38,471 nucleotides of DNA. Source: a virus. A program made the translations under genes and the position numbers. This document shows positions 2,757 to 3,740 of the stretch, in pieces. The notes under the pieces are model-generated. The model did no database searches. It worked only from the letters and a program-made list of their open reading frames with translations, and was not told the origin of the DNA. Within the stretch, counting starts at the first letter, position 1. Each line of letters opens with the position of its first letter. The stretch is taken from the UHGV virus genome UHGV-0091782; one strand, written 5' to 3'.

Positions 2757-3740
2757 TCATTTTTGTTTTAGCTTGATAATTTCCGATATTATGTTTGTTA
2801 GCTTTGAATCTGAAAGATTCTGCAGTCTATCTTTCTCAATAGAAACTGTAGTCTGTCCCTTTTCTAATATGAAATTTCTTTCTGTCTTCATCAAGTGCAT
2901 AGCCAACTCTTTTATCATATCTTCGCTCTTGAACTCTTGAACATATTTTAATGACATAACTTTCATCTCAATATTTGTAATTTCATTTTGAAAATATTTA
3001 ATCTCGTCAAACCCATTTTTATAGAGACGCAGAAAGAAATAAGCAAACAGCTCAACAACAATTACAAATGACAATTTAGGAAGGTGATGAATAAAAAAGT
3101 CCAAACCATCTACTATGGCTGGAGCGCTGTAAAGAAAATAAGCAAGGAATAATATCCCTGTTAACGCAATTGTAGTTCCGATTGCAAGGTTAACCCCACC
3201 TCGTCGATTGAGCCTGTCAATTTCGGACTCTAATCTTAGAACCATATCAGTATGGAGTTTGTGTAAGCTATAGCTTTTCTTAAAATTTGATATATCGGTC
3301 TTTAGGCTACTATCTGCCAAGAGTATTGTGTTTCCAATTATTCTTTTTTTTGCATCGGATATTAATTTATTTCTTTCGCTTTCCGTTAATTCAACTGAAA
3401 CCCCAGAAGACGACTTTTCTTCAACCTCAGTCAACCTTCTATGTAATCTCAATATCTCCTTGTGAAGAATATGGCTCGTTCTTTCAATACTTCTACCGCC
3501 AATCCCTTTATTTAGATAAGAGGTCATCGCAGTAAAAAAAATGCCAAGGAATGTCGCAAAAACTGACAAGTATAAAAAGAACCTCTTTTTCTCGCTTATA
3601 ACTTCTAATAGTGCTAATGATGAAGCTTGAACATTTGAAAACAAAAACAAAAGCACTAAAAAAATGGCTATAAACATTGTTGCTATAGTAATAAAATGTT
3701 TTCCTGAAAGATAAATTATAAAATCAATAATATTTTTCAT
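2757..3740 (-). CDS. AT-rich membrane protein (327 aa): predicted 4 TM helices, two on each side of a charged coiled-coil segment; candidate superinfection-exclusion or abortive-infection effector
   Basis: ORF track; hydrophobic stretches near residues 15-35, 54-75, 183-205 and 222-240; G+C visibly far below the phage core; bracketed by the 72-bp repeats and tRNA-Pro-like modules. Confidence 0.55.
   Translation of the reverse strand: MKNIIDFIIYLSGKHFITIATMFIAIFLVLLFLFSNVQASSLALLEVISEKKRFFLYLSVFATFLGIFFTAMTSYLNKGIGGRSIERTSHILHKEILRLHRRLTEVEEKSSSGVSVELTESERNKLISDAKKRIIGNTILLADSSLKTDISNFKKSYSLHKLHTDMVLRLESEIDRLNRRGGVNLAIGTTIALTGILFLAYFLYSAPAIVDGLDFFIHHLPKLSFVIVVELFAYFFLRLYKNGFDEIKYFQNEITNIEMKVMSLKYVQEFKSEDMIKELAMHLMKTERNFILEKGQTTVSIEKDRLQNLSDSKLTNIISEIIKLKQK

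Follow-up and report, generated by a model that had tools for sequence, protein, structure and literature searches.

The virus genome UHGV-0091782, analysed here over its whole length as a window of 38,471 nucleotides (nt), carries at positions 2757-3740 on the minus strand a gene for a membrane protein of 327 amino acids (aa) with four transmembrane (TM) segments. The open reading frame (ORF), which starts with ATG, is a real, constrained and intact gene. Judged by profile match, its product is a member of phrog_5157, a family annotated as being of unknown function. The family is stand-alone, single-gene cargo of temperate phages and integrative elements. We consider it somewhat probable that the protein acts at the membrane to defend the lysogen against other phages, and we tentatively favour, at a confidence short of probable, an abortive and channel-like version of this defence. 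The gene is presented as a well-defined and easily testable candidate for a one-gene phage-defence family.

The same DNA is found in the chromosome of E. coli Es_ST80_L1_NDM_10_2017, where RefSeq lists the product as hypothetical protein WP_042058396.1. Hydropathy places the TM segments at about residues 16-35, 54-75, 183-205 and 218-240. The members of each TM pair are joined by short loops (about 18 and 12 aa) that are predicted to be periplasmic, and the two pairs are separated by a loop of about 105 aa (residues 78-185) that contains 21 lysine or arginine and 15 aspartate or glutamate residues. After TM4 comes a C-terminal tail of 87 aa (residues 241-327). From the positive-inside rule, we infer that both termini and the long loop are cytoplasmic (N-in/C-in). 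The AlphaFold2 model, made with a 119-sequence alignment, is wholly helical (predicted local distance difference test score 84, predicted template modelling score 0.68), with helices at residues 2-34, 52-77, 85-109, 120-204, 212-269, 273-285 and 299-326. The fourth of these is a cytoplasmic coiled coil that runs on into TM3, and the fifth is TM4 running back into the cytoplasm. The layout of two plus two TM segments is kept in 119 diverse homologs, in which the median loop is 123 aa and the median tail 93 aa. Hydropathy, the model and the homologs thus agree on the four-TM, coiled-coil topology proposed in a first-pass annotation of this DNA.

The match to the phrog_5157 profile extends over the full length of the protein (residues 1-327 on profile positions 1-331, E 4.6e-161), and homologs match the same profile with E values from 1e-41 to 1e-185. 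We identified 884 relatives among 90%-identity clusters, nearly all of 310-370 aa. When the representatives of 50%-identity clusters were searched exhaustively with a profile, 2,815 relatives were returned at E <= 1e-3 and 1,562 at E <= 1e-30. A scan of genome contigs found matches in Gamma-, Beta-, Alpha- and Epsilonproteobacteria, Bacteroidota and Planctomycetota, and also in Verrucomicrobiota, Acidobacteriota, Nitrospirota and Desulfobacterota. Within E. coli the family is present in 73 of 5,426 complete genomes and never on their plasmids; among plasmid records generally, 7 of 72,556 carry it. IMG/VR has the family on 78 viral contigs. A tblastn search of GenBank phage records gave no match, and therefore the observed occurrences of the family are in prophages and on IMG/VR contigs, with none in deposited phage genomes.

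Constraint on the gene is strong and uneven. Relative to E. coli homologs that are 75-81% identical, the ratio of nonsynonymous to synonymous substitution rates (dN/dS) is 0.18-0.22 overall, with values of 0.6 for codons 1-80, 0.11-0.13 for codons 81-180 and 0.06 from codon 181 to the end. At the nucleotide level, the match to the UTI89-type allele covers the 3' 771 nt only and breaks off near codon 70. The N-terminal TM1-TM2 module may be either diversifying or swapped. Across the family, the conserved core spans approximately residues 165-305, and TM1, TM2 and the greater part of the loop vary. Invariant or nearly so before TM4 are R169, E173, R180, G181, N184, L185, G188, G195 and L199. These are followed by P221, R222, E230, FAYFFLRLYK (232-241), K248, YFQNE (249-253), T255 and N256, and in the tail by TERNF (286-290) and KGQ.T (294-298).

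Members of the family reside in defence or moron hotspots of mobile elements, and they do so alone. No conserved partner was identified among 546 neighbours within four genes at 78 species loci, where no neighbouring family occurs in more than three loci. The homolog adjoins the integrase of lambdoid prophages in UTI89, many extraintestinal pathogenic E. coli strains, Kosakonia and Proteus. The Grimontia homolog is in the variable region of a P2-like prophage, between the portal gene and gpA, which we take to correspond to the tin/old hotspot of P2. Directly upstream of the Vreelandella homolog are kwaA and kwaB. The Citrobacter homolog is beside an AbiJ-like gene in a P22-like prophage, between the nin region and the lysis genes (the Q-lysis slot), that of Pantoea is beside gtrABC-like genes, and that of Ectopseudomonas is in an integrative element carrying ParE. 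The gene found most often within two genes of the IMG/VR copies is integrase; next come Q-like antiterminator, HNH/portal, ParB and Ant. At non-viral loci, a minority of the immediate neighbours are OLD/GajA-like, CAP12-TIR, PDC-S35 or KAP genes.

The e14-like prophages at icd form a natural series in which cargo is swapped at fixed slots. In E. coli CFSAN061772 the gene order is icd, Cap15 and CD-NTase (components of a cyclic-oligonucleotide-based anti-phage signalling system, CBASS), the homolog and then intE. The same icd-intE slot in the e14 of K-12 holds ymfD, ymfE and lit. E. coli STEC17-183 has a homolog with a frameshift, flanked by a pin-like recombinase gene and an icd' fragment, and the pin-icd' slot in K-12 e14 holds mcrA.

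The base composition of the gene also bears on its origin. The GC content of the ORF is 0.322, compared to 0.346 for the sequence between the direct repeats described below, 0.501 for the whole window and 0.525 from position 6500 to the window end (the phage core). The strong AT-richness recorded in the first-pass annotation is therefore real, but its reading as a mark of recent acquisition is not borne out. Family genes are lower in GC than their flanks in 71 of 72 loci, with a mean deficit of 11.6 points, and a deficit that is family-wide does not show recent arrival. Low GC is a trait of the cassette, and shows mobile origin rather than recent acquisition.

The region around the gene is delimited by two direct repeats of 87 nt with 70% identity (2041-2127 and 4031-4117). 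They share the exact 20-mer GCTTTTGGCACATAGCAGCC, which is found in the 38-kb window only at 2044 and 4034 and for which 0 such occurrences are expected by chance. The repeats are 630 nt and 291 nt away from the ends of the ORF and therefore bracket a 1.9-kb module, not the ORF itself. PGAP annotates an 82-nt tRNA-Pro at 4040-4121, and the right repeat (4031-4121 on the plus strand, from the repeat search, PGAP and alignment to K-12 proL) is identical to proL in its 3' half, with a D-arm disrupted by an insertion in the 5' half. Thus, we conclude that the copy at 4040-4121 is a pseudo-tRNA. ARAGORN reported no tRNA genes in the window, and the Rfam tRNA model gave no match at E <= 1 to the right repeat. 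The left repeat (2041-2127, plus strand, from the repeat search and alignment to K-12 proL) is the same tRNA-Pro-like sequence, strongly decayed and more so than the right copy. A proL-like intrinsic terminator hairpin follows the pseudo-tRNA at 4131-4158 on the plus strand, as identified by a terminator scan and by similarity to the proL terminator.

Window positions 1000-4171 are 99.4-99.6% identical in ten other E. coli genomes. Homology stops at about 4171, to the right of which those ten genomes have a different integrated element. Given a constant left side and variable elements to the right of 4171, the pseudo-tRNA behaves as an attachment site. We read both repeats as attachment-site scars derived from decayed tRNA-Pro copies, a reading that places the target outside the neighbouring e14-like prophage, in an islet of 1.9 kb. 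The gene and this prophage (recognised by ymfQ, stfP and baseplate genes) are on opposite sides of the pseudo-tRNA. The gene had earlier been placed at a prophage end and between direct repeats. The first placement has to be given up, as the gene is outside the adjacent prophage and separated from it by the pseudo-tRNA-Pro. The second holds to the extent that there is an 87-nt pair with an exact 20-mer, but the pair encloses the 1.9-kb module and appears to consist of decayed tRNA-Pro copies, with nothing transposon-like about it.

The region upstream of the target (3741-3860, minus strand) includes a weak consensus-scan match to a promoter, TGGATA-16 nt-TATAGT (3854-3827), about 90 nt before the ATG. 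It is a candidate only, because the number of promoter-like sites found by the scan in this region is not above that in shuffled sequence. A 60-aa ORF on the minus strand (3876-4058) lies upstream of the target, at a distance of 135 nt, and shares sequence with the beginning of the pseudo-tRNA. This ORF has no Pfam match at E <= 1 and is probably spurious.

We searched for a known identity for the protein. Pfam, NCBIfam and PADLOC gave nothing significant for the query, for 30 homologs or for 119 homologs; matches to DUF2207_C, DUF2298 and DUF4131 were below cut-offs and look compositional, arising from TM segments. Sequence-profile searches of the PDB yielded only coiled-coil noise (ATP synthase b, E 0.014; keratin), and domain fusions in longer homologs were not informative. 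The first-pass annotation saw no enzymatic motif and no known relative, and both statements stand: searches of Pfam, NCBIfam and PADLOC gave no significant match, and no homology to RexB, SieA, SieB or KwaA was detectable. Comparison by hhalign gave probabilities of 0.7% for RexB, 0.3% for RexA, 0.4% for P22 SieA and 0.1% for SieB, with hmmsearch also negative for these four. For KwaA the probability was 0.1%; the KwaB test was also negative, and no KwaB (DUF4868) is encoded in the window. The AbiZ-like protein of the DS-34 system gave 1.2%, and the target has no Pfam match to DUF6161. Matches to MotA/ExbB are not significant. SLATT models did not match the query, and SLATT_1 was hit by one of 119 members (E 9e-4). 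Identity as a SLATT/S-4TM pore effector is not supported, the query lacking a profile match and the gene being solitary. One homolog adjoins a CBASS system already equipped with its own Cap15 effector.

The cargo slots and defence-gene neighbours of the family are consistent with an anti-phage membrane effector, and make this reading plausible. The slots through which mobile elements shuffle the gene are elsewhere occupied by Lit, McrA, CBASS, Kiwa, AbiJ and HEPN genes. The gene had been proposed to encode an exclusion or abortive-infection effector by analogy to RexB and SieA. The proposal gains from the cargo and defence slots (lit/mcrA, CBASS, Kiwa, AbiJ), with which it is consistent, but the analogies are not backed by homology to RexB or SieA, and it is from context that we infer the function.

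We propose a possible mechanism for an abortive channel. The cytoplasmic helical bundle would probably mediate oligomerisation of the protein. The near-invariant TM3-TM4 hairpin (N184, G188, G195, P221, R222, E230 and FAYFFLRLYK) could then form a latent ion-conducting or membrane-perturbing assembly, and we favour interpretation of E230 as a buried acidic residue and of N184, G188 and G195 as a small-residue face of TM3. A conserved juxtamembrane polar collar may keep the assembly closed. One helix would contribute R169, E173 and R180 to this collar, and the opposite side K248, Q251, N252, E253, T255, N256 and the TERNF..KGQ.T loop. Specific recognition of a component of the incoming phage at the membrane would fall to TM1-TM2, the fast-evolving module, and triggering would lead to collapse of the membrane potential, the abortive outcome. 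The conserved residues are kept across phyla whose phages share little, and therefore a host-membrane effector fits better than a phage-specific plug. A broader proposal, which we hold to be possible but doubtful, is that the family is a new class of one-polypeptide sensor-effector. In such a class, TM3-TM4 and the collar would be a gated channel unrelated to RexB, SLATT, Kiwa and MotA/ExbB, TM1-TM2 would read phage components in the membrane, and the whole would serve as a swappable defence cassette of temperate phages in at least six phyla.

Several observations weigh against a role in defence, or against a channel in particular. Moron slots also hold genes that are not for defence, such as those for O-antigen modification and virulence factors. 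The immediate neighbours at non-viral loci are mostly unrelated or housekeeping genes, with known defence genes a minority. Enrichment of the family at the ends of IMG/VR contigs is modest (34% of copies within 3 kb; Kolmogorov-Smirnov p=0.03). None of the 5,027 models of PADLOC-DB v2 matched the target at E <= 0.1, and structure searches returned generic helical hairpins only, with nothing that favours a pore in particular. Literature searches by accession and PHROG id found no paper on the family and no experiment on any member. The target accessions are absent from the examined part of the DefensePredictor tables (PMC13092281), an absence that is not evidence.

The main rival to an abortive channel is a non-lethal block of genome entry, which we think unlikely. 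This would be superinfection exclusion without cell death, with TM1-TM2 and the periplasmic loops blocking a channel or host factor needed for entry of phage DNA. P22 SieA, T4 Imm and HK97 gp15 block the route of incoming phage DNA. The genomic slots that point to defence are equally those expected here, the gene is single and has no toxin-control partner, and the fastest-evolving part is the N-terminal hairpin that faces the membrane and periplasm (dN/dS 0.6), which would fit the tracking of phage ejection proteins. However, periplasmic loops of about 18 and 12 aa are very short for this purpose, the conserved part of the protein is cytoplasmic or juxtamembrane and is kept over distant phyla with differing phages, and SieA or SieB homology is lacking. 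There is also a small chance that the protein is an accessory factor without a defence function, such as a regulator of lysis timing or induction, a factor for membrane stress or homeostasis of the proton-motive force (PMF), or an envelope factor of lysogenic conversion. Moron slots do carry conversion genes, the family is found beside gtrABC-like genes and, here, near an Acyl_transf_3 gene, the neighbours are mostly not known defence genes, and PADLOC has no match. These points are offset by the location of the gene outside lysis cassettes and also in non-phage islets, as in this window, by its residence in e14-like prophages at the positions of lit and mcrA and its adjacency to CBASS, Kiwa and AbiJ genes, and by a sporadic distribution and an AT-rich cargo signature that are typical of defence genes.

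The name of one UniRef homolog (MotA/TolQ/ExbB domain protein) and the matching topology were the reasons for testing MotA/ExbB. Under this explanation, the protein would be a divergent stator of the MotA/ExbB/TolQ/ZorA type, a pentameric PMF-using ring that acts alone or with an unlinked partner. We regard this as very improbable. The predicted topology matches that of MotA: N-in, two plus two TM segments, some 100 aa of cytoplasmic loop between the pairs and a tail at the C terminus. The weak matches share one register, at the start of TM3: PDB MotA chains have E values of about 1, hhalign to ExbB gives 10.7% probability (E 0.003), and Foldseek to MotA/PomA gives a probability of 0.6, also a weak match. 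In addition, PF01618 was hit by two of 119 members (E 0.004). On the other hand, no match is significant. The hhalign probabilities are 0.3% for MotA, 0.4% for TolQ and 3.8% for a three-sequence (three-paralog) profile, the query has no PF01618 match at E <= 0.1, no PADLOC ZorA model matched, and TM4 is never aligned. No partner like MotB, ExbD, TolR or ZorB, and no conserved neighbour, was identified in the 78 loci or among the ORFs next to the target in the window. Membership is therefore not supported: with weak hhalign scores, an unaligned TM4 and no B-subunit gene, the target is not filed with MotA/ExbB, and any relationship would be very remote.

The other cargo gene of the islet region encodes a HEPN-domain protein of 310 aa (1039-1971, minus strand, annotated by PGAP), 785 nt downstream of the target. 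The protein has no Pfam, NCBIfam or PADLOC match. An identical gene occurs in strain CP55_Sichuan, where it is alone in a Rac/Qin-like lambdoid prophage, between hokD and a DUF977 gene. Given that it is found there without the target, we consider the HEPN gene an independent cassette and reject it as an operon partner. The identity of the HEPN cassette between the window and CP55_Sichuan stops at ...CGTCCGCTTTTGGCACA, at about 2040-2060, which is the start of the left repeat. Because the shared sequence runs out in the opening bases of this tRNA-like repeat, cassettes may be exchanged by recombination at the 5' arm of the tRNA. The DefensePredictor supplement (PMC13092281) includes the HEPN protein under the label 'Predicted novel defense gene', with a mean log-odds of 9.43 and remote similarity to PD-T7-4.

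Strains AR_0128 and AR_0118 have an IS1A insertion in the interval that separates the HEPN gene from the target, which is itself intact. In the MS6192/MS6193 lineage, a frameshift splits the target into two ORFs, through either decay or a homopolymer assembly error. Gene decay was considered as a sign of toxicity and dropped, as one frameshifted clonal lineage and two strains with IS1 are too little.

The only recombinase remnant nearby is a truncated P4-type integrase of 112 aa (50-388, minus strand), which consists of the arm-binding domain only (Arm-DNA-bind_3, E 9e-24) and lies between a vat-marR island and the HEPN gene. A shared origin with the integrase adjacent to the UTI89 homolog was rejected, as the two are 34% identical. 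On the other side of the target, between the pseudo-tRNA and an acyltransferase gene, the interval 4363-4865 contains two pseudogenes that mark a decayed prophage end. One is DinI-like and frameshifted (Pfam DinI, E 1.7e-7 on the fragment 4403-4537), and the other encodes a truncated helix-turn-helix protein. The acyltransferase (Acyl_transf_3, 5039-6064, plus strand, E 6e-28) has a GC content of about 31-33% and, at the prophage end, adjoins the gene for tail-fibre assembly. This second low-GC cargo gene of the window is probably a moron that encodes an O-antigen or surface acetylase.

Phage defences that act at the membrane are among the least understood. If the target has such a function, one small prophage gene would protect lysogens of uropathogenic and multidrug-resistant E. 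coli (UTI89, avian pathogenic E. coli O1, sequence type 80 and NDM strains). This would have a bearing on host range in phage therapy, given a family of thousands of sequence clusters in many phyla, and would introduce a new channel-like fold whose invariant residues are clearly defined. The e14 slots, in which homologs of the target swap with lit, mcrA and CBASS, are a ready natural experiment. Should there be no defence phenotype, the protein would be a very common prophage membrane protein, worth a Pfam entry and no more.

Prophage-borne membrane proteins that exclude other phages are known as a kind, and phrog_5157 appears from our comparisons to be unrelated to any described example. Lambda RexB is expressed in lysogens and is thought to depolarise the membrane upon phage attack. 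Like the target, RexB is a prophage-encoded inner-membrane protein with four TM segments, but it is 144 aa long, lacks the cytoplasmic helical loop and tail, and requires RexA. Unlike RexAB, the target loci have no RexA-like or other conserved partner. KwaA of Kiwa is a four-TM defence protein that resembles the target in topology without homology, and Kiwa differs in that its KwaB partner is absent from this window and from most family loci. The validated systems of the DefensePredictor study (PMC13092281) include DS-34, a CI-like repressor with an AbiZ/DUF6161-like membrane protein, WP_000377448.1. As with the target, this membrane protein is prophage-borne, is about 320 aa long and has a coiled coil, then a TM hairpin and finally a cytoplasmic tail; it differs in lacking the N-terminal TM pair and in being part of a two-gene system. 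MotA-like features of the target are the N-in topology with two plus two TM segments, the lengths of loop and tail, and the extension of TM helices into long cytoplasmic ones. SieA and SieB are likewise phage-borne membrane proteins that exclude other phages and are encoded at moron positions expressed in the lysogen. They are half the size of the target, have another topology and are confined to close phage relatives, whereas the target family spans many phyla.

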